This document shows positions 2,031 through 61,032 of a stretch of DNA of 64,000 nucleotides, piece by piece; position 1 is the stretch's first letter, and every line of letters starts with the position of its first letter. Under the pieces are notes generated by a model. It did not search any database and was not told the origin of the DNA. It was given only the letters and a program-made list of their open reading frames with translations. Position numbers and translations under genes: made by a program. Origin of the DNA: Leucoraja erinacea (lineage: Eukaryota); NCBI RefSeq assembly GCF_028641065.1, contig NC_073385.1:41416001-41480000 (forward strand). Direction: 5' to 3'.

Positions 2031-3152
2031 GGGTTACACAGAAAAGCTGGAGAAACTCAGCGGGTGCAGCAGCATCTATGGAGCGAAGGAAATAGGCAAC
2101 GTTTCGGGCCGAAACCCTTCTTCAGACTGATCGGGGGTGGGGGTGGGTGGGGACAAGAAAGGGAAAAGGAGGAGTAGCCAGAAGGCTGGAGGGTGGGAGG
2201 AGACAGCAGGGAAGCTGAGGAAGGGGAGGAGACAGCAAGGACTAACAAAATTGGGAGAATTCGATGTTCATGCCCCTGTGCAGACTCCCCAAACGGAATA
2301 TGAGGTGCTGTTCCTCCTCCGGTGCTGCTCGCTGTGGCCATGGAGGAGACCCAGGACAGAGAGGTCGGACTGAGCCACCGGGAGGTCAGCTTGGTTATTG
2401 TGGACCGAGCGGAGGTGTTCGGCGAAACGATCGCCCAACCTCCGCTTGGTCTCACCGATATAGATCTGCTGGCATCTAGAGCAGCGGACGCAATAGATGA
2501 GGTTGGAAGAGATGCAGGTAAACCTCTGTCGCACCTGGAACGATTGTTGGGACGGAGATGGGGGGGGAGGTAAAGGGACAAGTGTTGCATCTCTTGCGGC
2601 CGCAAGGGAAAGTGCCCGGGGAGGGGGTGGACCGAGAGGGAAGGGAAGAATTGACAAGGGAGTTATGGAGGGAGCGGTCTTTGCGGAAGGCAGATATGGG
2701 GGGAGATGGGAAGATGTGGCGAGTAGTGGGGTCACGTTGGAGGTGGCGAAACTGACGGAGGATTATTTTTTGTATGTGACGGCTGGTGGGGTGAAAGGTG
2801 AGGACTAGGGGGACTCGGCCCTTGTTGCGAGTGCGGGGATGGGCAGAGAGAGCAGTGTTGCGGGGTATGGAAGAGACCCTGGTGCGAGCCTCATTTATGG
2901 TGGAGGAGGGGAACCCCCGTTCCCTGAATAGTGAGGACATTTCAGATGTCCTGGTGTGGAACGCCTCATCCGTGGAGCAGATGCGGCGTAGACGGAGGAA
3001 TTGGGAGTAGGGGATGGAGTCCTTACAGGAAGCAGGGTGGGAAGAAGTGTAGTCCAGATAGCCATGGGAGTCAGTGGGTTTATAGTGTATGTCGGTTAGA
3101 AGTCTATCACCTGCAATGGAGATAGTGAGGTCAAGGAATGGTAGGGAAGTGT
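2031..3152 (-). mobile_element. Penelope-like element (Neptune-type): RT C-terminus, Cys-rich linker, GIY-YIG, HHR-bearing terminus
   Basis: ORFs give MSSLFRERGFP..RVPLVLTFHP..FPCGRKRCNTC and FQVRQRFTCISSNLIYCVRCSRCQQIYIGETKRRLGDRFAEH; HHR-like motif at about 2096-2125 (-). Confidence 0.88.
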
Positions 3153-4038
3153 CTTGATGACATTAAATTCTGGATGGCCCTAAACTTTTTAAATTTTAAT
3201 GAAAAGAAAACAGAAGTGATAGTGTTTGGTCCCAATGGCTCCCGTGAATCTCCCCCTGTTGACTTGGGTCCCTTGGCACTGTATGTGAAGCCAACAGTTT
3301 TAAACCTGGGTTTTAAGATGGACAGTGATTTTACATTAGATCGTCAAATAGGCGCGGTAGTTAAGTCCAGCTTCTTTCATTTAAGGCAGCTGGCAAAGGT
3401 GAAGCCCATTCTTGAATGACAGCATTTTGAAACAGTAATCCATGCCTTCATCACGTCTCGGCTGGATTACTGTAACGCACTTTATTTTGGAGTTAGTCAA
3501 TCTTCCCTTGCACGTCTCCAGTTGGTTCAGAATGCTGCTGCTCGTCTTTTAACTGGCCTCCCTCCACTGGCTGCCTGTGTACTTTAGAGTTCATTTTAAG
3601 ATTATTTTATTTGTTTTTAAATCTTTAAATGGTCTCGCCCCGCCTTACCTCTCAGAGCTGCTTCATCCCTACGCTCCTGCTCGGTGCCTCAGGTCAGCTG
3701 ATCAACTGCTCCTGGAGGTACCGAGGTCTAAGCGGAAGCTCAGAGGGGATAGAGCCTTCTCTGTTGCTGCTCCGACATTATGGAACACTCTACCTTTGCA
3801 CATTAGACAGGCCCCTTCACTGTCCATTTTCAAAACTAGTCTTAAAACCCTTTTCTATTCCTTGGCTTTCGACCCTGCATGAGACTTTGCTCCTGTTTTA
3901 GTGTTTCTATTGTTTTTTTATTGTTTTTACTGTCTTTTAATGTTTTTATTTTGTTTTATGTTTATGATTAGTCATGTACAGCACTTTGTTGCAACAGTGG
4001 TTGTTTTTAAAGTGCTCTATAAATAAAGTTCAGTTCAG

Positions 4039-5195: not shown

Positions 5196-5286
5196 TTGTC
5201 TCAACAGCTTTTCTATTGCTGACATCACCATGAGGCCACGCCAAACAATTGGTGCCGTTTCCTCTACCAGAAATCCCATCGACATG
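5196..5286 (-). CDS. NUBPL: NUBPL exon 6 (iron-sulfur cluster transfer protein Ind1)
   Basis: cag|C ATG TCG ATG GGA..: [30 protein letters not shown]|gtgag; 91 nt; WRG motif of the Mrp/NBP35 family. Confidence 0.95.
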
Positions 5287-5410
5287 CTGCCAAGAGAAGA
5301 CGAGCATAAATTCAAAATGTATTTAATAGCACTCATAGAAAATGTATTTTACTTGGAAAGAATACACTCCTACAAGGAAGATGGGATAACATTGATTGGA
5401 AAATGCTTAC

Positions 5411-5450
5411 CAATTAATTCCATAATTTACCAAAGGTATCATCAAGTTGC
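5411..5450 (-). CDS. NUBPL: NUBPL exon 5
   Basis: aag|GC AAC TTG ATG ATA CCT..: (S)NLMIPLVNYGIN(C)|gtaagc; 40 nt; phases match the neighbouring exons. Confidence 0.92.
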
Positions 5451-5654
5451 CTTTTAAAGGAAAAGGTACAATGATTATGTTATATGCAGAATATTAATCG
5501 TAAACCACATCTATAACCCTACCCACAAAGTGCAAACGTGTGTTCACAGCAATCTCAATACATTATGCAAGGGAGAAGTGAACACATATTTGCCAAGCAC
5601 AAAGGCCTTGGGGCAGGGTGTCCATGTCAAGGTGCTCCAAATTCAAGTAAACAC

Positions 5655-5850
5655 ACAGCATAAACTTCAAGACAGAAAGTGCTGGAGTAACTCGGAGGAT
5701 CAGGCAGCATCTCCGGAGAACATGGATAGGTGATGTTTTGGGTCGAAACCCTTCTTCAGACCGATTGTGGTGGCAAAGGAGGGTACGTGGGGGGAAGAAA
5801 GCTGAAAGAGAGGAGGGGCAGGATAGCAAGTGAAATGTTGGGGGGGGGGT

Positions 5851-5884
<34 letters not shown>

Positions 5885-5935
5885 GGTCGACAGATGTTTG
5901 GACAAAACCAAAAGATGAAAATGTATGAGACAAAT
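5655..5935 (-). mobile_element. Penelope 3'-terminal fragment with HHR-like motif and poly-G run
   Basis: Reverse strand reads CTGAAGAAGGGTTTCGACCCAAAACATCACC..GATGCTGCCTG..GAGTTACTCCAGCAC. Confidence 0.65.
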
Positions 5936-6376
5936 AAAAGAATTGTGAATTTAGGTGGAGGAGAGAAGAAATGGGTGTGTATCCAGGTGGGGAAAAGGGA
6001 AGATTTTAATTTAGGAGTTACTTTAGGATGTTTGACTTGGAAGAACCCATCATACTCCTGGGATGTGAAGGAAGGGATTTATGACATAATCAAAAGTTAT
6101 TTGCCAGAGACAACACGTAATCTGTCCTATTCTTATGCTGTATATGTCAGGTCCGCTTAAGGTTCTCCTCCATAGGGATGCTGAGTGATACTGACCACTG
6201 GGATGCCACCACTGACATGACACCGTATCTCCAGAATTCAGCTTTCTTGGTCATTTTTAAACAAAGTGATCATAAGGTCTTGAAAATAATGGACCCAGAT
6301 GGACACAAATTAAACTATCAATGAACATCTTATTGTTATGTAACTACCTTTCATGCTAATGACAGCCGGTCATTAA

Positions 6377-6675
6377 GGGCGGCATGGTGGAGCAGCGAAA
6401 GAGTTGCTGACACAGAGCCAGAGACTCGGTTTGATCTTGATTAAGGGTGCTGTGTGTATGGAGTTTGTACGATCTCGCCATGATCTGCGGATTTTCGCTG
6501 GGTGCCCCAGTTTCCTCCCACACTTCAAAGATGTACAGGTATGTAGGTTAATTGGCTTAGTAAAATTGTAAATTGCCCCGAGTGTGTGTTGGATAGTGTT
6601 AGTGTTCGGGGATCGATGGCGGACTTGGTGTGCCGAATGGCCTGTTTCCATGCTGTATCTCTAAACTAAACTAAT
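6377..6675 (+). mobile_element. tRNA-derived SINE (HE1/V-SINE-like)
   Basis: Degenerate A/B boxes (GGTGGAGCAGCG; GGTTTGATCTT), core TGTATGGAGTTTGTACG..CAGTTTCCTCCCACA, tail (CTAAA)n. Confidence 0.75.
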
Positions 6676-7122
6676 TACCTGGTAGCAACTTCATTGCTCA
6701 GATTTTCCAGAGATATTTCTTCTTTATGGGGTACCACTGTGCTGCCATATATTGTGACTGTCACTTATTGGAAAGGATGCAACCAGCTAATGACATCAGC
6801 ATGGTGCATCCTAAAACATATATAAAGTCAGGATTAATGTAGGATTAGAAATAAAAAACACCAGAAAACAATTTGGGTATTATTTGTATAATATTTTGAT
6901 GTTTTGTTACTTCCTTTCTAGAGGGTTCATTATTAAAGTTTTCCTGATATATTTATTTTCCTGATTAATTCCTACTTTCACAGAAATAAAAAGAAAACCA
7001 AAACATTGAGTTTGGTTTTGCTAGGGTTCTTATCCTTTTTAATGACATTGTTTTTTGATGTTCATTCCATCGTATAGTATGTACAGTATGTAGAATGTTT
7101 AAGTTGATGTTAAGAAACTTAC

Positions 7123-7207
7123 TGTCTGTTAAAGCTGGGGTTCCTTTCAAGTTCATCATGCGTGGGATAGAAGGACCATGCACATCTGCATCCAGCAGCC
7201 CCACATG
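7123..7207 (-). CDS. NUBPL: NUBPL exon 4
   Basis: aag|CAT GTG GGG..: HVGLLDADVHGPSIPRMMNLKGTPALTD|gtaagt; DxDxxGPS motif. Confidence 0.9.
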
Positions 7208-7846
7208 CTTAAGAGATCAAAAACATACTGAATTGGTCAACATTCTTGGATATATTCAACTCTAATGCCAATGCAACCAAGGGCAGTTTTGAAAAAAAAT
7301 TGTTAATTCCTCAAAAGGTACAATTAATTATGGAATACAACACTCCTATCAGTAATACCAAGAATGCCCTTTATTCTCATGGAGTCATGCACAAATATAT
7401 GCATCTCCTTATTTTAGATATTTACTTTTTCCTGAATGTTTCTATTTTTAAGGTTTGTAATGGTTTTGTTTAACCTTTTTCTGATGTGGCACATAGGCAT
7501 CGGGCTGTTATATACCCCAACTTCATGGACAATGGTCCTCATTCACTTAGCAATATGCTTCTATGGTCAAACTTGTACAGGTGCAAATCAGGCAAAAAAC
7601 GTTTATTTCTGTCTGGCAATGTGGTCATGAACCCTGGAAGTTGCAATTCGACAGTCCTCAATAACAGCCCATTCTCACGTTCCACATTATGTTTGAAAAT
7701 GACAGGGTTTACCAGTCATGTAAATACATTTTGCTGTAAAAAAATTGTTTTTAAATACAAGTTACAGTCTGGTGGCAATTTCCACACAAATATTTCACCT
7801 TACAATGCTTCAACAAAATTGTATATTTAAAGGAAAATCCACCTAC

Positions 7847-7881
7847 CGCTTCATAGGCTGCTAATCCCAGAGCCAAATTCA
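7847..7881 (-). CDS. NUBPL: NUBPL exon 3
   Basis: cag|TG AAT TTG GCT CTG..: VNLALGLAAYEA|gtaggt; 35 nt. Confidence 0.92.
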
Positions 7882-8385
7882 CTGAAATTCAGATAGACAC
7901 ATATGTTAGATTTTTATAAGATAGTTATATGTCAGAATTTCAAATAAACACAATGAGCATTATCCCCAACTCCACACTCCCTTTCTGCTTCCCACTTCAG
8001 ACAAAAAGAAAAATCTTACGGCCAATAAACCTCAAGTGCCTCTTTACTATTTTATTTTGCCCGTTTTACAAGTGATGACAGAATCAGAGCAGTGTGAATA
8101 TGTAAGAAGAAGAAACCTGACAAAGACTATGCTACAATTCATGTTTCATATCTGGAATAAATAAATCACAGTTCTATTTACCCTCAATTCTGTGAGCTTC
8201 AGAATTGTGGCAGATTTCTGTTAAGTTATTAAAAGTCTGTTCATCAAACCAATAGAAACACCGATTCTATTTATGCCGACTGCTTTATATTGTAATCTAC
8301 AGCAGGAAGAATACTATCCCCTTCAAAATTATGTAATTCATAAACTTTAGACTAAAAAGTAGTTAGCATTCAGTAAACATTATAC

Positions 8386-8533
8386 CTGCAGTGGTTGATT
8401 TTCCAACGCCTCCTTTCCCTGAAGCTACAACAATAACTTGTTTTACTCCAGGAATTGCTTTTTGCTTTGGGACTCCCCGAGCCATCAATCGTTTTTGTCT
8501 CTCTTGTACTGATTCAGGAGTAGAGCCTGAAGA
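8386..8533 (-). CDS. NUBPL: NUBPL exon 2 (deviant Walker A)
   Basis: ttttcag|[49 protein letters not shown]|gtataa; 148 nt; [10 protein letters not shown]-loop. Confidence 0.96.
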
Positions 8534-9660: not shown

Positions 9661-10114
9661 AAGCAAGTTTGGTATTCCAAAAAACGCAAGGAATCATGGG
9701 ATTTGTCAAAGGTAATTTGTGATAAAGAAAAAGCGAACGGTGTATAAATTGTTAACTATGCCATCAATGAATTAATCTAGAATTTTGTCAACTCTATAGC
9801 TTCCTTTCTTGTTCTGCTGTTCACACACTACTTAGTCGCAGTTCCAGTTCAGTTCATTAATCTGCAATTATGAGATATTCAAATGTCAAAGAATTTATTA
9901 TTTTAATTTAATCCTTAATGTGTTTGTTACTGGAATAAGAAAATATTACTTGTGTTTAAAACATTTTCTTATCATTCATAATTTATGTGTAAAAATATAT
10001 TTAATCTGAGGAACGGGGGTGCCAGATAGCGGGAGAGTGGGATGTAACAGCGAGAGAGAGGGGGCAGATGCGTGTGGGAGACGATGAGAGACTGGACCAG
10101 CAGACATTCTCGGC

Positions 10115-10530
10115 AGCTGAGCTGCTGCATGTGTACAGACCCGCGTTTCATCCATAGTCAGGATCAAACCTGGGTCTCCGGTGCTGCAAGCGCAGTTGAA
10201 TTGCTACTGGACTGTCCCCTCCCGAGTGTCCCATCCCTGTCCGGAGATGTCCAGGGTGACCCTGGACTGACGGGACACCGGCCCGGAGCAGTAGCGGCCC
10301 CAGGCTTACAGCCAAGAAGCGCTGACTCCAGCTCAACTCTACTCCAACTCCCGAGGAACCCGTTCCCCGACGGGTGGGGGACCGTCAGCTGCACCTCTCG
10401 CCTTAGCTAGTGGCTGCCGGTTAACCCCCTCGGTGCCAGCGAAAGCCGAGCACCAGTCATCAACGGGGATACACACAAAATGCTGGAGTAACTCAGTGGG
10501 ACAGGCAGCATCTTTCAGGCATGATATTCA
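10115..10530 (-). repeat. Left arm of a diverged inverted duplication (partner 12012-12433)
   Basis: The reverse complement matches the right arm in colinear blocks, e.g. ATGACTGGTGCTCGGCTTT..GAGGGGGTTAACC, CAGGGATGGGACAC and GATCCTGAC..GGATGAAACGC.GGTCTGTA. Confidence 0.8.
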
Positions 10531-11565
10531 CCTTCAGAAAAAAAAGTAGGGAGCATTGGCCAGGGGGTCCAGGAGGCCGGCTAGACCCCCGGCAAGGTCC
10601 AGTGGGGGTTCAGGGGGCAAGTTTCTGCATTTTCAATAAATTGAAAGTGATCCCAAGGCTTTTTGCTGGTAGTTTACATAACAGAAGCAGATTTTTTCTA
10701 ATACATAACCAGTAAAATAACCCCCAAAAGATAAATATTTCATGAAATAAATGACTTCACACAGCTAAAAAAATCTTTACAAAAAATGTTACCTGAAATG
10801 TCACACAGAAAAGGTGATTGATTTACCTATGACATAAGTAACATTACCTTAACTTTAGTTTGCCTTCCTCTTTGCCTGACACTTTCTTTCTGTATTAAGC
10901 AAAACAAAAAGCGCTGCAGGAACTCAGGAAGCGAGTCAGGAAGCATCTCTGGATGGAATGGACAGGTGGCATTTCAGATTATGATCCTATAGCAGACCAA
11001 TTGTCCATTCCCTCCACAGATGCTGCCTGAAAGTCAATGGAGACACAAAAAACTACAGTTGCTGGAATTTTGAGTTGCTGGAGGAACTCAGCAGGTTGAC
11101 TCAGTTCAGAACTGACAATAAAGCAAACCTGCAGAATTCCTCCAGCACTTTGTGTTTTGCTCAAGATTCCAAAATCGGCAGTTCTTTGTCTCTCCATTGC
11201 ACCACTGTCGTTGATCATAAGTACTTTGGTTTTTGTACCATGATCTAGCTTACTTAGAATAACCAATAATTTACTGCTTCTCCTGCAGCAAGTAAAAAAA
11301 AATAATTGCAATTCTTGGCAGGGTTCCTTGGATTGCATTGCAATAAATCCATAAGCATTAAATTTCAGCCCATAGGCATTCCAACCCAAGATTTATTTAC
11401 ACTGCACACTGCAAGCATGGCACCATCCTCTCATCCCTAACAAAGTCAATATCAATGCGCCGTTCTGTCAGCCTTCCCCACAGCGGGTAGTCCGTTTAGT
11501 CCTTCTATGTGGCTGTAGACATCACTGGGGCCAGGAGCCATCCCTAGCCCGGCGCCATCACCCAC

Positions 11566-11634
11566 CGTGTTCGTCTTCAACACCATCTTATCCATCTTCT
11601 TGGCGATGCGCACGATCTCCTCCAACTTTCCCAT
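11566..11634 (-). pseudogene. Orphan first coding exon of a TFIIS (TCEA-family) gene inside NUBPL intron 1
   Basis: ATG..MGKLEEIVRIAKKMDKMVLKTNT|GTGGGT; closely resembles TCEA1/2/3 N-termini and ends at a phase-0 donor; no downstream TCEA exons were seen. Confidence 0.75.
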
Positions 11635-11739
11635 TAAGTCGTCGTTTTGTATTGTTGTTTTTGAGGGTGAGGGAGAGAGGGGATGTTGCAGAAGGAGAAC
11701 GTAATGGCTGCTCATATCAGCGGAGAGAGCACAGGCTTC

Positions 11740-11930
11740 TCCTCGCCTCTTGTATAGGGCATTGGCAACGACAGTTGGCCGGGCGCCACCACAAGCGCTG
11801 CTGGGAGCTGTAGTCCCAACCCGCGCCCCAGATGCCCCGCCCTGCCCATCGCGCTCACCCTTCCGCACTACAACTCCCAGTGCGCCCTGCGCCGCCCAGC
11901 TCCCCAGCCGCCGTCTCTAGGTGAGAAGCC
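11740..11930. promoter_or_regulatory. CpG-rich bidirectional-type promoter with two divergent ZNF143/THAP11 (ACTACA-TCCCA) motifs
   Basis: CTGGGAGCTGTAGT 11801-11814 (-) and ACTACAACTCCCAG 11867-11880 (+), GC box GCCCCGCCC between them, plus-strand donor AG|GTGAGA at 11921. Confidence 0.7.
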
Positions 11931-12011
11931 TTCACTCGCCTCAGGTCGGAGAATAATAATGATAATAATTTAAAAATCGGGTTCATTGCTAGGAAAATAA
12001 TAAACAATCGG

Positions 12012-12433
12012 AAGAATATCGTGCCTGCATCTTTGGTAAAAAAAAGAGTAGGTAACGTTTCAGGTCGAGACCCTTCTCTAGATATGTTGCCTGACCCGCT
12101 GAGTTACTGCAAAATTTTGTGTGATGACTGGTGCTCGGCTTTTGCCGCCACTGAGGGGGTTAACCAGGGATGGGACACACAGAAGGGGACGATAGGGGTT
12201 ATGCAGGAGAGGGGTGCGTGGTTCGCCACCTTATAGCCCTGTATAACCCGGGAGGGCAGCCCGAGTGAGAATGAAACTCATACACCCAGGCTGAGGGGGA
12301 TTGGACCATGATTCATTGGATTGTCACTGCTGAGATTTATGTATGGACCATTGGAGAAGTAGCAAAATCAGAGACCAGGTTCGATCCTGACCACGGATGA
12401 AACGCAGGTCTGTATTCACGCAGCAGTTCAGCT
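12012..12433 (+). repeat. Right arm of the inverted duplication (partner 10115-10530)
   Basis: Colinear reverse-complement blocks with indels, as described for the left arm. Confidence 0.8.
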
Positions 12434-12469
12434 CATTGTTTCCACTTTGAAGGGAATAACCAGAAATTC

Positions 12470-13345
12470 TGGTTGTCTTCGGAGTGGTGCAGATCTCACA
12501 ATCTCACCCTCAATGTGGAAAAGACAAAGGAAATGGTGATCGATTTCAGGAGGGCTGAAAAACACCATCACACTCCGCTGCATATTGATGGAGTTGCTGT
12601 AGAGGGTCAGCAGTGTGAAGTTCTTGGGACTTCACCTGGCGGATGACCTGACCTCTACGACCAACACCACAGCAGTGATCAAAAGAGCTCAGCAGCGGCT
12701 CCACCCCCTCCGGGGACTAAGAAAAGCAGGTCTCCCTACTGTTCATCTAAGGACCTTCTACAGGGGCACCATCAGAGTATATTGACCTACGGCATCACTA
12801 CCTGGTTTGGGAGCTACAAGGCTTATGAGCAAAACCAATTTAACAGGATAGTGAAGACAGCCAGCAGGATCATTGGTGCCCCACTCCCTTTCCTGTTGGA
12901 GATCTATTAGAAGCGGAGCATCAGCAGAGCCATCTCCATTATTAAGGACCCCTATCATCCATCACACCACATCTTCTCCATTCTGCCATCTGGGAAGAGG
13001 TATAGGAGCATCAGCTTCAAAACCAGCAGAATGCTACACAGCTTCTTTCCACAGGCAATAAGGCTGGTTAACGGACTGTGTCCCCTCCCCATATATCATA
13101 CACCAACACATCTAACCTTGCCCATACTTTGACAGCTAGGCACCTGTCAAAGCAAAGCCACTGTTTGGTCTGAATGTTTTATTTCAGTTTTTAGGCCTAT
13201 TTTAGATATGGTATAATTTTTAAAGCTATATGTATTTATTCTGTTTTTATTAACCGCACTGATGGGAACTGATTGAGAAACAATTTTTTCGTTTCATCTG
13301 TGTATGTAAGTACTCAGTTAAAATGACATTAAAGTAAATACAGTA
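12470..13345 (+). mobile_element. Rex1/Babar-type LINE 3' fragment
   Basis: LTLNVEKTKEMVIDFRR..VKFLGLHL..RAQQRL; nearly identical to 43395-44095. Confidence 0.8.
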
Positions 13346-13844: not shown

Positions 13845-14940
13845 TCTTTTCTCCATACCCTTGATCCCCTTGGCCACAAGGGCCAAATCTAACTCTCTCT
13901 TACATATAGCCAATGAACTGGCCTCAACTACCCTCTGTGGCAGAGAGTTCCAGAGATTTAACACTCTCTGTGTGAAAAAAGTTCTCCTCATCTCGGTTTT
14001 AAAGGATTTCCCCCTTATCCTTAAGCTGTGACCCCTTGTCCTGGACTTCCCCAACATCGGAAACAATCTTCCTGCATCTTCCTGTCCAACCCCATTTTGC
14101 CGTTTCTATAAGATAATGTAAACTCTAGATAGTATAAACCAAATCAGTCTTTCTTCATAAGACAGTCCTGTGAATTACCTTTCTGCAATCCCTCTATGGC
14201 AACAATTAGGCTCAGATTTGAGAAAAATGTTAATCAGGTGTGGTCCTTAAGAAATGAACCTCCCTGGCTTTCTTGACTATCCAAGATCGCTTTCTTTACT
14301 GCAGCTTTTTTGTCAATGATGTACCATGACACCCAGGTCTCGTTGCATCTCCCCTTTTCCTAATCGGCCACCATTCAGATAATAGTCTACTTTCCTGTTT
14401 TTGCCACCAAAGTGGATAACCTCACATTTATCCACATTATACTGCATCTGCCAAAATTTGCCCACTCACCCAGCCTATCCAAGTCACTTTCAGTCTCCTA
14501 GCATCCTCCTCACAGCTAACACTGCCCCCCAGCTTAGTGTCATCCGCAAACTTGGAGATATTGCCTTCAATTCCCTCATCCAGATCATTAATATATATTG
14601 TAAATAGCTGGCGTCCCAGCACTGAGCCTTGCGGTACCCCACTAGACTGCCTGCCATTGTGAAAAGGACCCGTTTATCCTACTCTTATCTGATGGGTTCT
14701 CTATCCACATCAATACTGAACCCCCAGACTTTGATTTTTAAATCTCTTAAAATTGTTGTAACATTGCTACATACAGCACTCCACGTTTAGTTACATCCTC
14801 AAAGTTTATAAGAGGGCAGACTGATTTACCTTTTGGTAAATCCATGCTGACTTTGTCCAATGATTTCACCACTTTCTAAATGTGCTGCTATCCCATCTTT
14901 AATAACTGACTCTAGCAGTTTCCCCACTACCGATGTTAGG
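13845..14940 (-). mobile_element. CR1 LINE 3' fragment, partly scrambled
   Basis: [28 protein letters not shown] and MFPMLGKSRTRGHSLRIRG..FFTQRVLNLWNSLP. Confidence 0.8.
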
Positions 14941-15690
14941 CTTTTTATATCCCGCAGTATTTTTCTCGGCATTTGAGGGCACTAATCCAGCGCGATGTGG
15001 CGTTTAAACCATAGCGTTCTATGGCAACAGCGCTTTAAATGGGTACAGCAATTGACTGTTCGGAAAAAGCTCGTAAATTATAACAATTGTGAGTCTTTGG
15101 AATAATCTTTCCTTCTCAGTGGAAGTCCTTAAGAAAGCCTATTAGTTTTTGTAATGTTTTCAGGCAGTGCTAATTTCCGGTATGAAAATGGCCAGCCTAA
15201 TACTTGAGATATGAAAAGGAATTTTGGTGTCCTTATTGTTATGCTTTATCTGATGGGATAAATTGCAGACTTGATTTTTAAAATCTCAAAATTTTGTAAC
15301 ATTGCTACATACAGCACTGCCGGTTTAGCACTCAAAGGTTTAAACAGGGCGCTGTTAGTTTAACGCGTGGGAATTTAAACAAAGAGTTGTGGGCTGCAGC
15401 ACTATGGGTTCTAAATATAGCGCTACCAGCTGCAGCGCTATGGGCTTTAAACATAGCGCTATGGCAACAGCGCTCTGGGTCACAGACTGTTCGGGAAAAA
15501 GCTCGTATAACAATGAGTCTTTGGAATTCTCCTTCTCAGTGGAAGTCGAGCCTTTAGTTATTTTTCAGGCAGTGGTAGAATTCTGGATAAGCCTAGTGGT
15601 GAAAAGGTACCAGTGGGCTGTCGGATTGCAGTTACATTGGGATTGGGATTTTATAGGGGGGGGCTCAAGGGGGGAGAGGGAGGAGGGGGG

Positions 15691-16463: not shown

Positions 16464-16541
16464 CCAGAAACGCGCTGCCAAAGCCGCCAAAGCCGCGCTT
16501 GTCCCGACGCCACGGCTCCTGGCTCCGCACAGCTGCGCCAT
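16464..16541 (-). CDS. NUBPL: NUBPL exon 1 (putative mitochondrial targeting peptide)
   Basis: AGGATGG start, MAQLCGARSRGVGTSAALAALAARFW|gtgagt; 78 nt; phase 0 matches exon 2; Arg/Ala-rich with no acidic residues; lies in a CpG island. Confidence 0.8.
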
Positions 16542-17143
16542 CCTCCCGCCGCCGTGGACACCCTCTCCCACCGACAGAAGATCTACACGGGCAACGACGC
16601 TTGGACTTTAACCGGGCAAAGGATGAGCGGCGTGCATCACACGTCGACCTCTTGCTTCAGCCTTGGAGCCGGGTGAACGACGCCTGTCTGAGTAAGATGG
16701 CCGCTGTGGAGCTGGGTCGCGCCTGCTCGCGCCCGCGACCTGCGCATGTGCTCGTGCCCGCGACCTGTGACGGTGCTCGTGCCCGCGACCTGCGCATGTG
16801 CTCGTGCCCGCGACCTGTGACGGTGCTCGCAGCCCGTGCCGGTGCTCGTGCCCGTGGCGGCAGGAAACGGAGGTGACGCGCGCATCTACCCATGGATCTC
16901 AGAGGGGGCAAATTTGAAGGGGGCCTTTGGCGTGAAGCGCTGGTTTGGAGCCGCGGGTCGGGTCGGGTCGGGTCGGGCTGGGCGGGTGGTCGGTCTGTCG
17001 GCGGGGGAATGGGATGGGGCAGAGCCGCTTGCGTTGTCTCGCTCCTTGTCTTTGAGTCGGGGCCGGCCCCCGTCCCGCTCTGGGACCGCTGCTGAGGGAA
17101 GCGGGGCCGGGGCCGTGAGGGGTCGCCGGGCGCCAGGCTCCCA
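16542..17143. promoter_or_regulatory. CpG-island bidirectional promoter for NUBPL and the Myb/SANT gene
   Basis: Very high GC and CpG content; YY1-type AAGATGGCCGC at 16694; NRF1-like TGCGCATGTGC at 16741 and 16791; divergent start codons about 600 bp apart. Confidence 0.75.
16725..16855. repeat. 25-bp alternating (AB)n GC-rich tandem repeat
   Basis: Units TGCGCATGTGCTCGTGCCCGCGACC and TGTGACGGTGCTCGTGCCCGCGACC alternate with a 50-bp period. Confidence 0.9.
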
Positions 17144-17672
17144 ATGATGTCCGAGGCGAGGTCAGAGCGCGGCGCCCTGTGGTCGGACGCCGAGACCCTG
17201 GCGCTGATCGCCGTGTGGAGCGAGGACAACGTGCAGACGGCCCTGGACGAGCAGCTGAGGAACAGCCACGTCTTTAAGTTCATCTCGTCGCAGCTGCTGG
17301 ACCAGGGTTACATCCGCACGCCAGAGCAGTGCCGCATCCGCATCAAGGGGCTGAAGAGGAAATACACGCTGGCCAAGGACAGCATCAGGCGCGGTTGCAG
17401 CGCCAGCGGCAGGAAGATCTGCCGCTTCTACGAACAGCTCGACGCGGTGCTCGGCTCCCGGGTCGCCAACGACCGAGCGGTCGCCACGGACGCGATGGCG
17501 ACGCCCGATGACCCGCAGGATATCAAAGAGGAACAGAGCAGCCCCCACTCCGAGTCGAGTCAAAGAGTTGAATGTCGCAATGGTCATTGTTCCTCCGAGG
17601 AGCCCGAGCACCCGAGGGCAGAGAGCAGCAACAGGCAATTTGAGCCTCAGCCCTCGACCAGTGCTTTCTGCA
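17144..17672 (+). CDS. Myb/SANT-like (trihelix, MSANTD-type) DNA-binding protein, exon 1
   Basis: WSDAETLALIAVW..LRNSHVFKFISSQLLDQGYIRTPEQCRIRIKGLKRKY..CRFYEQLDAVLG; phase-1 donor A|GTAAGA at 17673. Confidence 0.88.
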
Positions 17673-20600
17673 GTAAGAAGTTTGATTTACTATATCTTTC
17701 AGCAAAAAGTTAACGTGAGTTCATAACGGACGCTGAAAGTCAATGGGAATTACAGGAATGCCCTGTTCCCAGCTGTTGGATATGTTGTAACTTGGTAACT
17801 AAATGAAACTTTTATACGGGCAAGGGGAAATTATGTTCCCAGTGAAACGCAAGTTTATCTCCCCAGAACATCATGTAATCTCGACCAATTCGTTTAGAAT
17901 TGATAGACATAAACGCTGGAGTAACTCCGTGGGATAGGCAGCATCTCTGGAGAAATGGGATAGGTGACATTTCGGCTCGTGTCCTTTAAATGAATGTTTC
18001 TTAGTGTTTTGAAACATCGAAACGTCACCCATCCATTTTCTCCAGAGATGCTGCCTGACCCTCCGAGTTACTCCAGCGTTTCGTTTTACATTTTGTGAGA
18101 TTTAACAAATGAAAATGTAATGAAGAGTGTTGTAATATAGTCTTGACTTCGGCCTTGTTAATACTGAAAAGATTTTGCCGAGCGAAGTGGTGTATTTGTG
18201 GCTGTATTATTTCAGTGGCGGTCCAACATTCTCATTAATATAACGAATTTCGTGATGTTGGTGATGCTGCTGGACGTCAAGTTTTGTGGTTAGATTCATT
18301 CTTTTGATTGCGATTGCCATTGTGTGGCATCTCAGTATAAATGTTCCCGCTACTGGATGTTTATGATTTGCTGCGGACAGTTTCATTGTTTACATAGTAC
18401 TTTGTGAAACCAATAGATGTAACAATCATCACACATCCCAGCCAATGATTGCCAGTGGAGACATTCAAGCATTTGAGCAATTGTAGAAAAAAAACGGAGG
18501 TGTATTCCCAATGGATCAGTGATTTGAGCTCTGAAAATGGTTGAATCTCGGTCATTTGAGCCCAATAAGAAGACCGCTGAGAGGATAAATATAGAACCAG
18601 GGACACAAGATATTGGAGTTACTCAGCGGGTCAGGCAGCATCTCTGGAGAAAGGGAATTGGTGACGTTTCGAGTCGAGACCCTTCTTCGGACTCGACGTG
18701 CAGGTGCTGGTTTACACAAAATGACACAAAGTGTAGGAGTAACTCAGCGTGTCAGGCAGCATCTCGGACAACGTTGTGTCATTTGAGGTCAGGACCCTTG
18801 AAGTTACTCGAGCAACTTGCTGAGTTGCTCCAATTGTGCCCTTTTAGCTGAAAGGATAATCTGACTGAGGTAAATAAGCTTGAATGTTCCTTTAACTTGC
18901 TGTTTGATTCCGTTTGTTTTAACTTAATAAACATGAATTTTAAATGTGATTATTCCATTATCAATATATGGATTAGGATTCGGGCTGGTATTACCAAAGC
19001 TCATTGCAATCATTGTAAAATTAATGTGTTACAATGTGTCACAATTGGAGCCATGAGATTCATATATTCAGTTTGTTGAATAATCTTCCCTCTATGGACA
19101 TTTTATTTTGGAACAGAAAAAGCTGAAAATACTCAGTAGGTCAGGCAACATATGTAGAAACATTAGAGTTAGCATTTTAGATTTGAGACTCATTGGTCAA
19201 ATGTTTGAGTGTTCCTGGCAATTTCTGTTTTTATATCAGATAGCTACTGTTTGCAATTTTTCAGAATTTCAAATAGAAAGTAAAATAATTATCTTGGCCT
19301 TTATTCTGGGAGTTTGCAATATTAGGCTATTTATAGATTGGGTACACACAGATATGTGCTAGTCTAATGCCATTATGTACCAGTATTGGATAAATACGTG
19401 TTGTTTTCTCAAGCAACCCGTTTTATCTTTCTTATTTATTTATTTATTTATTTATTTGTTTATATTTTATTAGAAGCAATTGTGCAAAGATAAAACGTTT
19501 GGCATCTAGAATTATACAATCATTGAACAGCGTCATTTTTAACCTTATAACCTAAATTGTGAAAATGAAAAAAAGGAAAGAGAAAGCAAGAAAAGAAGAA
19601 AGGAAAAAGTGAAAGGATAGAGTAGAAAAGAACATGAAAAAGTCCCCTAAACCACCAAAGCAGTGAAGTAGAAAGATAGAGGAATAAGATAAAATGGAGA
19701 TATACCTTGACCCCCCCCCCCCCCCCCCGCCTCACCCAACATAGCATCGGATTTAAATTTGTGTTTCACCATACTATTGTTGTAAAAATTCAGTGAAGGG
19801 TGTCCATGTCTTAAGAAATTGATCTGGTTTTTTCCCATTTTATCTTCGTCCGAAACAATTGAAGATCCTGGTTAATTTTTTATTCAGTATTGGCAGTTGG
19901 TATTGGTAGTTTCAGCTGGTACTCTTGTGCGTAACAGTCCACTATATAAAGATACTAACAACACAAATGAGGTGGAAAAAAAACAAAAAGTTAATTTGTT
20001 TAACAAGACTTGCTAGATTACACAATATATTTGCACTATGTCAGAAACATGAAGGCCCATCATCATATTGCCGCTTGTGTGTTTGGGAAAAATTAGTGAC
20101 AATAGTATTTTTAATCTCCAAGACCTTCTTAACCATCTTGATTCTACCCGCAAATTGACATTTGTGATGGGGTTTTGATAATATTTTATTTGAGATATAT
20201 CACTTCTATTTTTTTGGTGTATGTTTGACCAGTGAATATAAAGGTGCTTATGTGTATTGATTTTATGTTTGTCCTGTTAACTGCAACCAGTGTGTTTATA
20301 GAGGAATATGTAGAATTACAATTTCATGATTTTGAATGAGGCCAGTATGCTCACCTGCATTTGTTATTATTGCTAATAAAATCAATCAAGAAAGCAGAAT
20401 TTTACGATGAGCTAAGAAACTGCTCTTGATATCAAATCAGTTATTCTCAAAGAACTTCATAATTCAGAAATTAGTGGGCTCACTGATGATTATACTGTGT
20501 GTCATTGTTAATTCCTCACAAAACTGAATTCTGTGATGAGCCTTTGCATCATCTGCAAGGCGCAAGTCAAGAGTGTTGTGGAATGCTCTCAGAGCTGGTA

Positions 20601-21875: not shown

Positions 21876-22121
21876 TTCAAATAAACGGACAGACTTAATT
21901 TTGACTTTAGCATCAAAATGTTGATTCAATAGTTAATTCCCACAGCATTATGGATAAAACTAGATAATATTTGATGAATGTGTCCTCCATTCATCCAATT
22001 GCTATTATCATACCCTGGAATATTGTAATTTCCTTTGTTCAAAAATGTTTTTTTCTGTTTACCACAGTGCTTTTTGCTCTGGTGAGGCACATCTCAAACA
22101 TGTGTATTTTTATTTCCTCAG

Positions 22122-22468
22122 CACCCCGTATCCGGCGAATGCATTCATCTCTACCATTCACACCTCAGCCGAAGAAAGCAAAGAAGCACTCACTGGAGGA
22201 CATAATGGACGGCATGATGGAGAAGTTCATCCGCTACAGCGAAGCTGCCGATGAAAAATTTCTCCGTTACATGGAGGCATCAGAGGAACGGTTTGCTCGT
22301 CTTGAGCAGCTCCGTATGGAAATGGAGGAAAGGATGAGACAAAGTGATAGAGAACATGAAGCTCGTGTTCTCTTTATGTTGGGACAAATGATGGGCCATA
22401 ATATGGCTGACTTTCCTTCCACATCTACAGCTACTGAAGGTGAAATAACGGAAAGAAAAGTATTTTAG
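22122..22468 (+). CDS. Myb/SANT-like protein exon 2 (basic NLS-like patch and coiled coil)
   Basis: tttatttcctcag| phase-1 acceptor in frame with exon 1; PKKAKK; EERFARLEQLRMEMEERMRQSDREHEARVLFMLGQMM; the joined CDS is 876 nt (291 aa). Confidence 0.82.
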
Positions 22469-29635: not shown

Positions 29636-29762
29636 CTAGAAATCCCCAAATCCCGGTGAGATTTGGTTTCGCTCCTCTAGTATCTTTGGTTTTGCTACAT
29701 CTCCTGTTTCCGGAGGAAGTTGCATTTGTAGCCCTATCTTTGGCCCTTACCCTTTGACTTCA

Positions 29763-29852
29763 ATGGCGGCTCGTGTGGTGTTGCAGCAATGTCTTTCGGC
29801 TCGGCTGCAGGTGAAGCCGGCAGAAGAAGGCACAGCGGCTGAATACGTTCAG
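29763..29852 (+). CDS. DTD2: DTD2 (D-aminoacyl-tRNA deacylase 2 / ATD) exon 1
   Basis: MAARVVLQQCLSARLQVKPAEEGTAAEYVQ|gt; upstream ETS-like CCGGAGGAAGT. Confidence 0.9.
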
Positions 29853-30065
29853 GTTCTTGGCGTTGATGGCTGGGATTGCCTTTCCTTACAGCTGGGCGTA
29901 CTGTTGCTCTTGATTTCTCGTGGAGTGGGAAATGAGGCATCGTGTCGGAATATTCTCCCTCCTCTGGGCCGTCGGTTATAACCCGTATTTCATCTTTCAT
30001 TTGAAGTTCATTTGTGAAGGAAGAATTTATATCATATTTTGAATAGTTATTTCCCTATTTTACAG

Positions 30066-33085: not shown

Positions 33086-33270
33086 CACAGAGTTTAATTG
33101 GAAATAATAAATAATTTTTCCAAGTAAATTTGGTTAATCCCCCAAAAATTAACCCTTGATCTAATTCAAATTGTTTGCATTAAATATTTTACAGTTAAGC
33201 AGTTTATTTGTATGATGAAATCAAACTGAAAAGTGTTTAGATTTTACCTACAATATTTTCCCTTCTGCAG

Positions 33271-33596
33271 TTAAATCGTTGCTGAATGTGAGACTCTGTG
33301 AGGATAATGAAGGTAATCACGTGTCTGTGCTGGATCTACCGGCTAATGTTCTCATCATACCTCAGGCTACTTTGGGTGGTAAACTCAAGGGACGGGCCAT
33401 GCAATACCATGACAATATTGGAAAGGAGGATGGCAAAGAGCTTTTTGCACAGTTTGTAGCTCACTGCGAAAAAGAATTGGCCTCGAACAGTAAATGTGCT
33501 GAAGTTGGAGTTGTGGTCAAACATGGAACATACGGAAGTCGACAAGTGTTGCAAATCGACACCAATGGCCCATATACACACTTGATTGAATTTTAA
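33271..33596 (+). CDS. DTD2: DTD2 exon 3 (terminal)
   Basis: ctgcag|..[49 protein letters not shown]; total CDS 486 nt (161 aa). Confidence 0.95.
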
Positions 33597-39599: not shown

Positions 39600-40030
39600 C
39601 AGGGGGAAGCTCTCCCTCTCTTGCAGCAGCACAGAGGCTGTTCGGTTGCTCGGAGTTAGCCTGGCTTGGCCTGGTCCGGCCTGGCCCCTCCGCCGACCGC
39701 TCGGAGTTGTGCTCGCAGCCCTGGCCTGGTTGCTCGGCGCCGGCCAGTCTTGGTCGCGGCTCCTGTGGACTGGGAGAGGCGAGGGCCGCGCAGTCTACAA
39801 GCGAGGAGGTCTCGGTCTCGGTGCCGGTGAGTGACTGGGTGTCCTGGCGCTGCGGCCTGTTGTCTAGGGTCGGGCGGGGAGGCGGTGGAGGAGCGATCCC
39901 CGGGGTGGTCACCCGGCCAACGCCTGCAGAGTCCAACTCCTATCGGTGGGAACTCGCCGCATCAACCGTGCGGGGTTGACGGAGTGAAGGGTCGAGGCAA
40001 GGCTTGAAGGCTACACGGCGTGATACCTTT
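39600..40030 (+). promoter_or_regulatory. HEATR5A: HEATR5A CpG island and putative non-coding exon 1 (donor at 39827)
   Basis: GC/CpG-rich island with CCG|GTGAGT donor; the next coding exon has its own acceptor (50164) upstream of the ATG. Confidence 0.65.
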
Positions 40031-45030: not shown

Positions 45031-45218
45031 CTGACGTCATCGCGTAACGCCATGCGCTAGGTGTGCGCCGTCAAGACGCTGCGTACGACGTCGAGACGTG
45101 TGTACGCCAGTAGAGACGCTGCGCACGCCCTCAATGCGCCTGCGGGCCGACAGGCCGTTGACTCGCGGGATTTTAGGAGAGTGCAAGCCCGTGGGAATGG
45201 CGAAAAGCAGCGGGGGAC

Positions 45219-46923
45219 GTGGACTTTTTCAAACGAAAAGAAGCTGCACTCAAGGGTTCCCGCATCTATTTGACGGGTCACTGCGCTCATCAAAATGAAG
45301 CAGCTTTGAAAGCTTTATACCGGATTGCTTATCGAATCGCACAGACTAAGAAACCTCACAATATCGGTGAAGAGCTTATCAAGCCATGCCTTCTCGAAGC
45401 AGCAAAGTTGGTGCTGGGGGAACAGCAGTCAAGCAAGTTCAGGCAGATTTCCCTTTCGAATGACACAGTCAAAAGTCAAATCTCGGATATGAGTAATGAT
45501 ATTCTGCTGCAAGTAGTGAGCGCTGTGAAGAGCGATCCAGTGTATTCACTGCAACTGGACGAGTCAACAGATGTTCCCTCATGTCCCCAACTGCTAGTCT
45601 ACGTTCGTTACCTCAATGGAGAAGCCATGAAGGAGGAGTACCTGCTCTCGGAGCCATTGTCCACTACCACTCGGGGAGAAATGTGTTCAGAATGCTGGAA
45701 GCCTTCCTCATCAAACATGAGCTTGGCTGGGAATGCCTTGTCGGGGTGTGTACAGATGGGGCACCTTCCATGGTTAGTTTCAGATCCGGCTTCAAAGCCT
45801 TCGTGAAGGATGTTGTTCCCCATGTTTCCTTCATCCACTGCATGGTACATCGCCATGCTTTTTGTGATGAAGACTCTCCCTCCTGGTTTTCGAGAAGTGC
45901 TTTCAGAAGCAGTGAAGGTTGTGAACCACATCCGAGGGAGCGCAACAAACACAAGAATCTTCAAAGCGATGTGTGAAGAAATGGGCGCCGATTTCACTGT
46001 TCTGATATTCCACACAGAGGTGCGCTGGCTTTTGCGTGTTTAAGTTCTCAATCGTGTGATTCAACTTCAAGATAAATAGCGCTGTTCTTGGAGAGAGGGT
46101 GTACTGAGAAGGAGAATCAGCTTCATGAAATTATGCAGGATGAACAATTCGTGATGAAGGTTGCTTACTTGGCTGACTTCTTCGCCGGGGTGAATTCCTT
46201 GAACCTGTCACTTTAAGGAAACTTCCCAATGCTACACACGGCTCATGACAAAGTGGCAGCGTTCAGGAGGAACCTTTACCAGAGAAGTGTCCAGGACGGT
46301 GACACAACTATCTTCCCTGAGATGTCGACTCTCCTGGATGCTACGCTAGATGCTGAATGCCACTTCCACAAGGAGATCTCAACCCACCTTTTGGCAATTA
46401 GTGAAGCCATCGAACGTTACTTCCCGGACTGGACGACCGCTCTCGTGATGAGTGGATCATCTGACCCTTTTCTGTTGAAGACGGTGCCATCAGCGATACT
46501 GACGTGACTGCGGAGGTTGAATTTTATCTGTGAAGATGCGGAGCTCAAGAGTAACTTCATGGAACAAGAGCTTGCCACGTTTTGGCTGAAAGTGAAGGAC
46601 TGCTCTGTTCTTTCGAAGAGGGCCCATTCCCCTTTAACCTATCGCTGTGAGGCTGGATTCTCAATCATGGTAACTCTGAAAACGAAGGTACGCAATAGGC
46701 TTGTGATCGAAGCTGACATGAGGTGTGCTACCTGTCGAACAGTTGTGCCTTTTTTGATCGCATGATGGCTGCGAAGCAATTTCAGCCATCCCATTGACTG
46801 AGCATTGGCGGACATGTTTTAATAAATCGGGCTGGTTTTTTTCCAATTTTTGTTTTGGGGGTCACGGAACTGACCAAGAATATCTGATGGGGTCGTGGGG
46901 CCAAAAAGGTTATAGAACCACTG
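45219..46923 (+). mobile_element. hAT (Buster/Charlie-type) transposase, frameshifted, with right TIR
   Basis: KKPHNIGEELIKPC..ISLSNDTV..LQLDESTD..CTDGAPSM..IHC..FHTEVRWL..CEAGFS; right end AAGGTTATAGAACCACTG (reverse complement CAGTGGTTCT). Confidence 0.88.
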
Positions 46924-51099: not shown

Positions 51100-52410
51100 G
51101 CACTGTAGACGGTGATGTGGAGATATAAAAAACAATGAATGAAAGATATGCAAAAAAGTAACAATGATAAAGGAAACAGGCCGTTGTTAGCTGTTTGTAA
51201 GGTGAAAATGAGAATCTAGTGCGACTTGGGTGGGGGAGGGATAGAGAGAGGGAATTGCGGGGCTACCCGAAGTGAGTGAAATCAATATTCATACTACTGG
51301 GCTGTAAGTTCCCCAAGCGAAAAATGAGATGCTGTTCCTTCAATTTGCATTTAACCTCACTCTGACAATGGAGGAGACCGAGAACAGAAAGGTCTGCGTA
51401 GGAACGGGAAGAGGAATTAAAGTGTCCAGCAACCGGAAGATCACGTAGGTTCAGGCAGGCTGAACGAAGGTGTTTCGCGAAACGATCACCCAGTCTGCTT
51501 TTGGTCTGCTTGTATAAGAGTCCGCATGTTGAACAACGAATACAGTAGCTGAGGTTGGAGGAGGTGCAAGTGAACCTCTGCCTAACCTGAAGGGACTGTT
51601 GGGGTCCCTGGACCCTCGAGGGAGGAGGTATAGTGACAGGTGTTGCATCTTCAGCGGTTGCAGGGGAAGGTACCTGGGGAGGGAGTGGTTTGGGTGGGAA
51701 GAGATGAGTTACCAGGGAGTTGTGGAGAGAAAGGTCTCTGCAGAAGGTGGAAAGTGGGGAAGATGGGAAAATGTGGCTAGTGGGGAATCCCGTTGGAGGA
51801 TTATGTGTTGTATGCAACGTCTGATGAGGTGGGAGGGTATGGACTAGGGAGACTCTGTCTCTGTTGCGACTAGGGGGATGGGGAGCAAGGGTGGAGCTGC
51901 GGGGTACCGAGGAGACATGAGTGATGGGAGAGGGGGACCCCCGTTCCCTAAAGACTGAGGACATTTCAGATGTTCTAGTATTGAACACCTGATGACGGAG
52001 GAACGGAGTAGGGCATAGAGTCTTTGCAGGAAGCAGGGTGGGAAGAAGTGTAGTCAAAATAGTTATGGGAGTCACTGGGTTTCTAATAGACGTCAGTCAA
52101 TAGTCTATTTCCTGTGATGGAGACTATGAGATCAAGAAAGGGGAAGGAGGTGTTGGAGATGGTCCAAGTAAATTTGAGTGCAGGATGAAAATTGGTGGTG
52201 AGGTTGATGAAGTCCATGAGTTCTGAATGGATGCAGGAGGTAGCATGGATGTAGTCATCAATGTAATGGAGATAAAGTTTGGGGATAGGGTCAGTGTACA
52301 CTTGGAACAGGGATTGTTCAACATACCTTACAATGAGGCAGGCATAGCTGGGGCCCATGCGGATGCACATAGCTACGCCTTGGAGGAAGTGGGAGGAGTC
52401 AAGTGGGTGC
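51100..52410 (-). mobile_element. Penelope-like element (RT and GIY-YIG), degenerate
   Basis: GVAM..MGPSYACL..YIDD..LKFTWTIS..FLDL; FTCTSSNLSYCIRCSTC..RLGDRFAKH..EQHLIFRLG..NIDF. Confidence 0.88.
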
Positions 52411-60868: not shown

Positions 60869-61032
60869 NNNNNNNNNNNNNNNNNNNNNNNNNNNNNNNN
60901 NNNNNNNNNNNNNNNNNNNNNNNNNNNNNNNNNNNNNNNNNNNNNNNNNNNNNNNNNNNNNNNNNNNNNNNNNNNNNNNNNNNNNNNNNNNNNNNNNNNN
61001 NNNNNNNNNNNNNNNNNNNNNNNNNNNNNNNN
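60869..61032. other. Assembly gap (164 N)
   Basis: Run of N. Confidence 1.

Follow-up and report, generated by a model that had tools for sequence, protein, structure and literature searches.

A TIR-bounded element carrying the 5′ end of a TCEA2-type gene in the first intron of NUBPL in the skate Leucoraja erinacea

Introduction

The capture of gene fragments by DNA transposons with terminal inverted repeats (TIRs) is well known in plants and has been documented for few animals. In the accessible part of an animal survey such elements, termed Pack-TIRs, number 370 in 100 genomes, with four multicopy cases and none in the elephant shark (PMC8277862). The same excerpt gives a median cargo of 224 bp, exons in 13.4% and chimeric transcripts in at least 30% where this was tested (PMC8277862). 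Related cases named there are Ssk-FB4 of Drosophila and the plant Pack-MULEs, in which a non-autonomous TIR element likewise holds the captured 5′ part of a gene together with its own regulatory sequence (PMC8277862).

Here we describe an element of this kind in the skate Leucoraja erinacea. All positions refer to the window, the whole stretch of 64,000 nucleotides that was analyzed. The element, located in intron 1 of NUBPL, fits a Pack-TIR, a type of DNA transposon with captured gene fragments that has been described in other animals, and with cases such as Pack-hAT-N8_XT of Xenopus tropicalis, which carries the 5′ UTR of CAPSL, it shares the host fragment between TIR ends and the target-site duplication (TSD), as far as the accessible text describes them (PMC8277862). 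The 5′-end cargo, the possible presence of several copies and the intronic position on the strand of the host gene are also common to both. Unlike the survey cases contained in that excerpt, the present one comes from a cartilaginous fish, and its cargo comprises a complete promoter, an ATG exon and a splice donor, matching the reading frame of the host gene. Ssk-FB4 and the Pack-MULEs are described there with long TIRs and TSDs of 9-10 bp, and Ssk-FB4 as strongly expressed, whereas the TIR here is 14 bp and the TSD 7 bp long (PMC8277862). A TCEA2 parent is represented by skate proteins and perhaps by one of the contig versions of the cargo.

With non-autonomous hAT elements it has in common short TIRs starting with CAG, a length of 1.5 kb and the lack of a transposase. 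TIRs starting with CAG are common in hAT elements. The signature TSD of hAT elements is 8 bp in the part of the literature at hand (PMC4818426), whereas the exact duplication found here is 7 bp, and an eighth bp is gained only by assigning the terminal G of the element to the flank. In the mostly open-access literature we found no published account of the TCEA2-NUBPL case or of hAT-type gene capture in skates.

Results

The NUBPL locus and its surroundings

NUBPL is encoded on the minus strand of the window. The coding part of exon 1 (16541..16464, 78 nt) ends in phase 0 at a GTGAGT donor and specifies 26 amino acids with three arginines and no acidic residue; judged from its sequence, it is likely the presequence. 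NUBPL needs an N-terminal leader for mitochondrial import. Exon 2 (8533..8386) has a phase-0 acceptor and contains the start of the P-loop; its best named match is from Rhinoraja longicauda (93% over 40 residues). Exons 3 to 6 follow at 7881-7847, 7207-7123, 5450-5411 and 5286-5196 on the same strand, spanning 5196..7881 overall, and exon 4 is 85 nt long. A second AG lies at 8527 (minus strand), 7 nt into exon 2, and its use as acceptor would shift the frame. In intron 2, organism C carries about 198 additional letters at 8293-8294 (run X6, record 10).

Head-to-head with NUBPL and sharing its CpG island lies a Myb/SANT-like DNA-binding gene (17147-17710, plus strand; PF13837, E 2.9e-19), and an open reading frame at 21968-22465 (plus strand), which has no Pfam match, may be a coiled-coil exon of this gene. 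A 25/50-bp tandem repeat is located at 16724-16860 within the NUBPL promoter CpG island. Exons of a D-aminoacyl-tRNA deacylase follow at 29640-29978 and 33219-33593 (plus strand), the second with a match to PF02580; a position of DTD2 next to NUBPL presumably agrees with the human gene order. The window further contains a CpG island at 39600-40000 (GC 0.68) to which no gene was assigned, a garbled-looking, partly duplicated stretch at 14700-15550 that may be poor consensus, and a gap of 164 N at 60869-61032. Penelope-like retroelement remnants occur at 2271-3162 (minus strand) and also near 52000 and 62000, with a weak GIY-YIG match (E 0.0017) below the cut-off. Broken reading frames at 45177-46800 (plus strand), which have neither a Pfam match nor a TIR match to the element at 10516-12027, are by the look of their motifs presumably the remnant of a hAT-type transposase.

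An orphan TCEA2 exon in NUBPL intron 1

The coding part of the captured exon occupies 11566..11634 on the minus strand. Read from 11634 to 11566, its 69 nt translate into MGKLEEIVRIAKKMDKMVLKTNT, i.e. 23 codons ending in phase 0, and are directly followed by the donor GTGGGT (11560..11565). The exon thus lies in NUBPL intron 1 on the NUBPL strand and in the phase of exon 2 (phase 0); translation and exon mapping agree in this with an initial annotation, which had described an ATG-started exon in phase with the acceptor at 8533. The same annotation had recognized the N-terminus of a TCEA (TFIIS) protein, and this holds. In a PDB sequence search with the peptide, N-terminal structures of human TCEA1 and TCEA3 made up the top six of eight matches (best E 0.0014), and a tblastn search of five shark proteins against the window recovered the exon with 21/23 identical residues (E about 1.5e-7 with BLOSUM62 or 1e-14 with PAM30); therefore, the resemblance is not due to chance. 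A Pfam search with the 23-residue peptide alone gave no match at E 0.1, as expected at such a length.

The identity can be narrowed down to TCEA2. A search with the 60-residue reading frame returned ten proteins, all shark TCEA2-type and 21/23 identical, although in the databases some are called 'protein 2' and others 'protein 1-like'. The cartilaginous-fish TCEA1 records P0069, P0071 and P0102 (shark and ray) share only 14-15 of the 23 residues, which assigns the captured exon to the TCEA2 type. Its boundary is fixed by the shark isoform P0011, which skips the next exon and breaks directly after KNT, exactly as in the captured exon. Sequence and boundary therefore agree with TCEA2 exon 1, and the phase is common as well, but only 23 of about 298 residues are present. 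No further TCEA exon was found among the tblastn matches listed for the five shark proteins, where the next best hit (E 0.03) falls into repeats, and the complete five-helix N-terminal domain, the central domain and the zinc ribbon of TCEA2 are absent within the window. The exon is therefore an orphan here, as had been proposed.

Two residues, L19 and T21, set the captured peptide apart from the sharks. Neither occurs in any of 109 homologue N-termini, 106 of which have K at position 21; these were taken from 120 proteins after 11 with fewer than 11 matches had been dropped, 10 of which do not have the region. Both changes suggest relaxed selection, as read from the alignment; however, they could also be the regular skate TCEA2 states instead of decay, since none of the 120 listed proteins is a TCEA2 of full length from a ray or skate. 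Skates do possess a TCEA2 gene, represented by the proteins P0028 of Leucoraja and P0029 of Amblyraja, both 261-aa isoforms without the first exon. A loss of TCEA2 exon 1 to the NUBPL locus in skates was considered and set aside: a shark, too, has a 261-aa isoform (P0030), and a further version of the exon region is seen among the DNA contigs.

Upstream region and intron start accompany the exon

Upstream of the exon lies a CpG-rich stretch at 11635..11940 (minus strand; GC 0.61, CpG o/e 0.74; window, 0.47), which likely represents the captured 5′ UTR and promoter; CpG o/e is 0.81 across 11566-11940. It contains two motifs of the M4 (ZNF143/THAP11) type, one at 11802..11814 on the minus strand and a second one, inverted relative to the first, at 11867..11879 on the plus strand. 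The motif was taken from the accessible part of a published source (PMC5006282). These are the only two matches in the whole window, a count that is weak on its own (0.58 expected; 12 of 100 shuffles reach two). What matters is their position, as both sit in the CpG-rich stretch, 170-245 bp before the TCEA2 ATG. A further in-frame ATG occurs at 11715 (minus strand), 27 codons upstream of this ATG, and out-of-frame ATGs are found at 11762 and 11849.

On the other side of the exon, 11248..11565 (minus strand) is low-copy and likely corresponds to the start of TCEA2 intron 1. The outer limits of both parts are drawn from contig ends, since in X1 as well as in X6, the two DNA runs, the low-copy contigs begin at 11248 and stop at 11940, and a cargo of about 0.6-0.7 kb would follow from them. 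The donor, the intron start and the upstream promoter motifs are kept and no exon 2 is joined; therefore, the TCEA2 copy arose at the DNA level and is not a retrocopy, as had been supposed from the exon alone.

The cargo lies in an element with TIRs and a target-site duplication

What had been missed is the context of the exon: the copy is inside a TIR- and TSD-bounded element, which provides a mechanism. The element extends over 10516..12027 (1,512 bp) and is without a long open reading frame. Its left TIR CAGGCATGATATTC (10516..10529, plus strand) is matched at 13 of 14 positions by the right TIR (12014..12027, minus strand), and this is the single inverse match to the first 14 bases from 10516 in 64 kb, even with up to two mismatches. 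Outside the TIRs, the heptamer CATCTTT is present on the left (10509..10515) as well as on the right (12028..12034). A scan of the window for 14-bp inverted pairs spaced by 300-5,000 bp, with at most one mismatch and identical 7-bp repeats on their outer sides, returned this pair alone and nothing in each of 20 simulated windows, with the reservation that the thresholds were picked after the case was known and that allowing two mismatches yields seven pairs.

Further evidence for an insertion comes from the flanking sequence. The element interrupts an older high-copy repeat, which we assume may derive from the ends of Penelope-like elements, with its left half at 10467..10515 and its right half at 12028..12123 (both plus strand). 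The right flank resumes the repeat in register with the left half, and 710 reads of the bulk RNA run X24 that stem from other copies of the repeat bridge the joint from 10513 to 12051. In 15 of 15 other copies the heptamer is single and never CATCTTT, whereas both flanks carry CATCTTT here. This arrangement is what an insertion that duplicates its target site would leave.

Around the element, inverted repeat arms (10115-10513 and 12084-12433, 85-91% complementary) reach past the interrupted repeat; they may represent a fold-back structure of older date or a pair of repeat copies in opposite orientation. They were rejected as the mobile unit once the TIRs and the TSD had been found inside them. 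An Rfam search over 9800-12700 gave five matches, all far under the gathering scores, which were likewise rejected.

Taken against the Pack-TIR definition, the element has TIRs at both ends, a TSD, host sequence in the range of 100-5,000 bp and a cargo that is not a retrocopy.

Further copies in public DNA contigs

The left part of the element is high-copy and may belong to a dispersed TIR family. Its depth in the bin 10630-10808 is 5,920 in X1 and 19,417 in X6, compared with single-copy values of 32.6 and 47.5, and it was seen once with another flank. This second flank is found in an 864-bp contig (X1, record 4), whose last 172 letters equal 10516-10687 without a difference and whose first 692 letters are other sequence that was not placed on the window. 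The match begins exactly at the left TIR, and its edge at 10516 was the starting point from which the inverse match at 12014-12027 was sought. Since the contig is unbroken at the TIR, it suggests that the X1 animal carries the left end elsewhere and perhaps not in NUBPL. Furthermore, the capture likely preceded the jump into NUBPL, because an identical left end exists at another site.

The cargo is also present in more than one version. At position 11495, three X1 contigs add up to 65.6 (19.9 for the window type and 45.7 for the two others), and in X6, which comes from a different organism (C), two contigs reach 90.4 against a single-copy value of 47.5; because adding up contig depths does not yield a copy number, we restrict the claim to two or three cargo versions. 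A multicopy Pack-TIR would have several cargo-bearing copies with distinct TSDs. One X1 contig (record 7), aligned to 11447-11701, shows 24 differences and five gap letters in 260 and probably stems either from the parent gene or from a sister copy; at about 89% likeness it lies just below the value of at least 90% used for a Pack-TIR parental copy, where the parent itself is outside a transposable element. The cargo contigs of X6 are 99.5% (11248-11447) and 95.6% (11581-11940) alike to the window and NUBPL intron contigs about 98%, which makes it likely that a version of the cargo is older than the split of the two organisms.

A contig joining the element to the NUBPL intron was not found among those listed for X1 or X6. 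A young, still segregating insertion and a misplacement both fit the X1 contig, and the private heptamer on both flanks favors the former.

RNA evidence

The bulk RNA run X24 comprises one sample, of which 12.9 million reads (5% of the run) were used; reads were placed at 88% identity, and repeats flooded the tables of joints, loose ends and differences. Depth on NUBPL exons 2, 3 and 4 is about 19, about 16 and 17-18, whereas the bin of the captured exon received 143 bases, corresponding to about one read and to an at most approximately twofold depth if all of it fell on the exon. The promoter bin (11704-11882) received no bases. Both X24 reads at 11405 carry an insertion that is absent from the window and thus come from another copy. 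No junction from 11566 to 8533 appeared among the best 15 joints listed for this run (2,030 further). The single-cell run X22 gave about 82 bases over 11525-11882 and zero depth on NUBPL exons 2-4, and it is uninformative for 5′ exons. The search across public runs listed no RNA run with the sequence, which speaks neither for nor against its use; entries with small shares (organisms D and E) were left out of the analysis.

Reads from exon 1 of the parent TCEA2 are also almost absent in X24, so this type of promoter may be off in the tissue. The low RNA cover is therefore a weak negative, as it stems from one tissue and from an animal that may lack the insertion. P0012, a record of 307 aa from a 1,293-bp transcript-type contig, joins exon 1 of the window to exon 2 and is identical to the NUBPL of the window over residues 27-66, and none of the ten NUBPL proteins fetched (of 13 matches) has the TCEA2 peptide as its N-terminus. 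The suggestion that the exon serves as an alternative promoter and first exon is not supported, with about one read against a depth of 16-19 and a transcript-type record that starts with the normal exon 1. The chimeric TCEA2-NUBPL isoform derived from it is possible yet unsupported by this run.

Discussion

The two ends, the TSD, the interrupted host repeat, the identity of the cargo and the low RNA cover in one sample were observed directly. On this basis we consider it probable that a non-autonomous DNA transposon captured a 5′ piece of TCEA2 and that the copy in NUBPL intron 1 is a near-silent, decaying passenger. A piece of about 0.6-0.7 kb from the 5′ end of TCEA2 would have entered a short TIR element as a copy made during repair or through template switching, and a transposase made elsewhere would then have moved the element into the older repeat in NUBPL intron 1. 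NUBPL would splice exon 1 to exon 2 across the element, and the in-frame arrangement would be fortuitous, with a fusion as a latent option. From intron-phase frequencies, the same strand and phase 0 are expected by chance in about one of four cases and hence need no selection. The preserved ATG and donor, both M4 motifs and the CpG content of the cargo count against a decaying passenger.

In a fusion, the captured peptide of 23 residues, three of them acidic, would replace the Arg-rich, acid-free leader of 26 residues, and therefore mitochondrial import would likely fail. The N-terminal domain of TFIIS is a five-helix bundle with the main binding pocket formed by helices 3-5, according to the accessible part of the source (PMC9987994), so that the 23-residue piece would add no TFIIS function.

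A rival explanation is that the cassette works as an alternative promoter and first exon in a particular tissue, for which testis would be the first candidate, and yields a TCEA2-NUBPL fusion without presequence. We regard this as unlikely. It can draw on the intact ATG, the phase-0 donor, the two M4 motifs and the CpG island, on three acidic residues against none in the NUBPL presequence, by which import would likely be lost, and on the occurrence of a cargo version in organism C as well. Human TCEA2 is called testis-specific in the portion available of one report (10.1101/2021.03.10.434830), and the survey excerpt places Pack-TIRs often in chimeric RNAs (PMC8277862). However, about one read faces a depth of 16-19 in X24, where the promoter bin is empty, the N-terminus occurs in none of the ten NUBPL proteins, and two changes in the peptide are non-conservative. 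Moreover, 23 residues are a minor part of the five-helix domain, whose pocket is assigned to helices 3-5 in the source as accessible (PMC9987994). In its boldest form, this explanation would have a recently mobile, multicopy vertebrate transposon donate the TCEA2 promoter, ATG and phase-0 donor, with NUBPL gaining an in-frame, non-mitochondrial Fe-S scaffold isoform in some tissue, e.g. testis, from an insertion that is still segregating; we see this combination as unlikely.

It is quite improbable that the assembly misplaced the element in NUBPL and that it sits elsewhere. None of the listed X1 and X6 contigs bridges the element and the NUBPL intron. The one long contig that shares the left end without a difference comes from another flank and runs through the TIR without a break, an indication that X1 lacks the NUBPL junction, and garbled-looking stretches are present near 14700-15550. 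A misjoin, however, would not duplicate a private heptamer on both sides or keep the halves of the repeat in register. A polymorphic insertion fits the contig equally well, contigs break in repeats, and the absent bridge proves nothing.

Very improbable, in our view, is a cassette that makes no protein and acts on NUBPL RNA as a weak internal promoter, an enhancer or an occasional cassette exon: promoter motifs do lie 4.6 kb into NUBPL and candidate acceptors exist upstream of the ATG at 11708, 11711, 11940 and 11989, but no X24 read covers 11704-11882. An ordinary short segmental duplication via the flanking inverted repeat copies (10115-10513 and 12084-12433, 85-91% complementary), with TIR and TSD as coincidence, is highly improbable, as the inner arms are halves of a single interrupted repeat, the TSD and TIR lie exactly at the break and a contig edge at 10516 is independent of them.

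If the captured cassette is silent, it adds one modest entry to the known cases and cautions against taking an orphan exon in frame as evidence of a fusion protein. A skate case with a cargo of promoter, exon and donor, which may be multicopy and polymorphic, would allow a clean test in nature of whether such cassettes create fusion genes.
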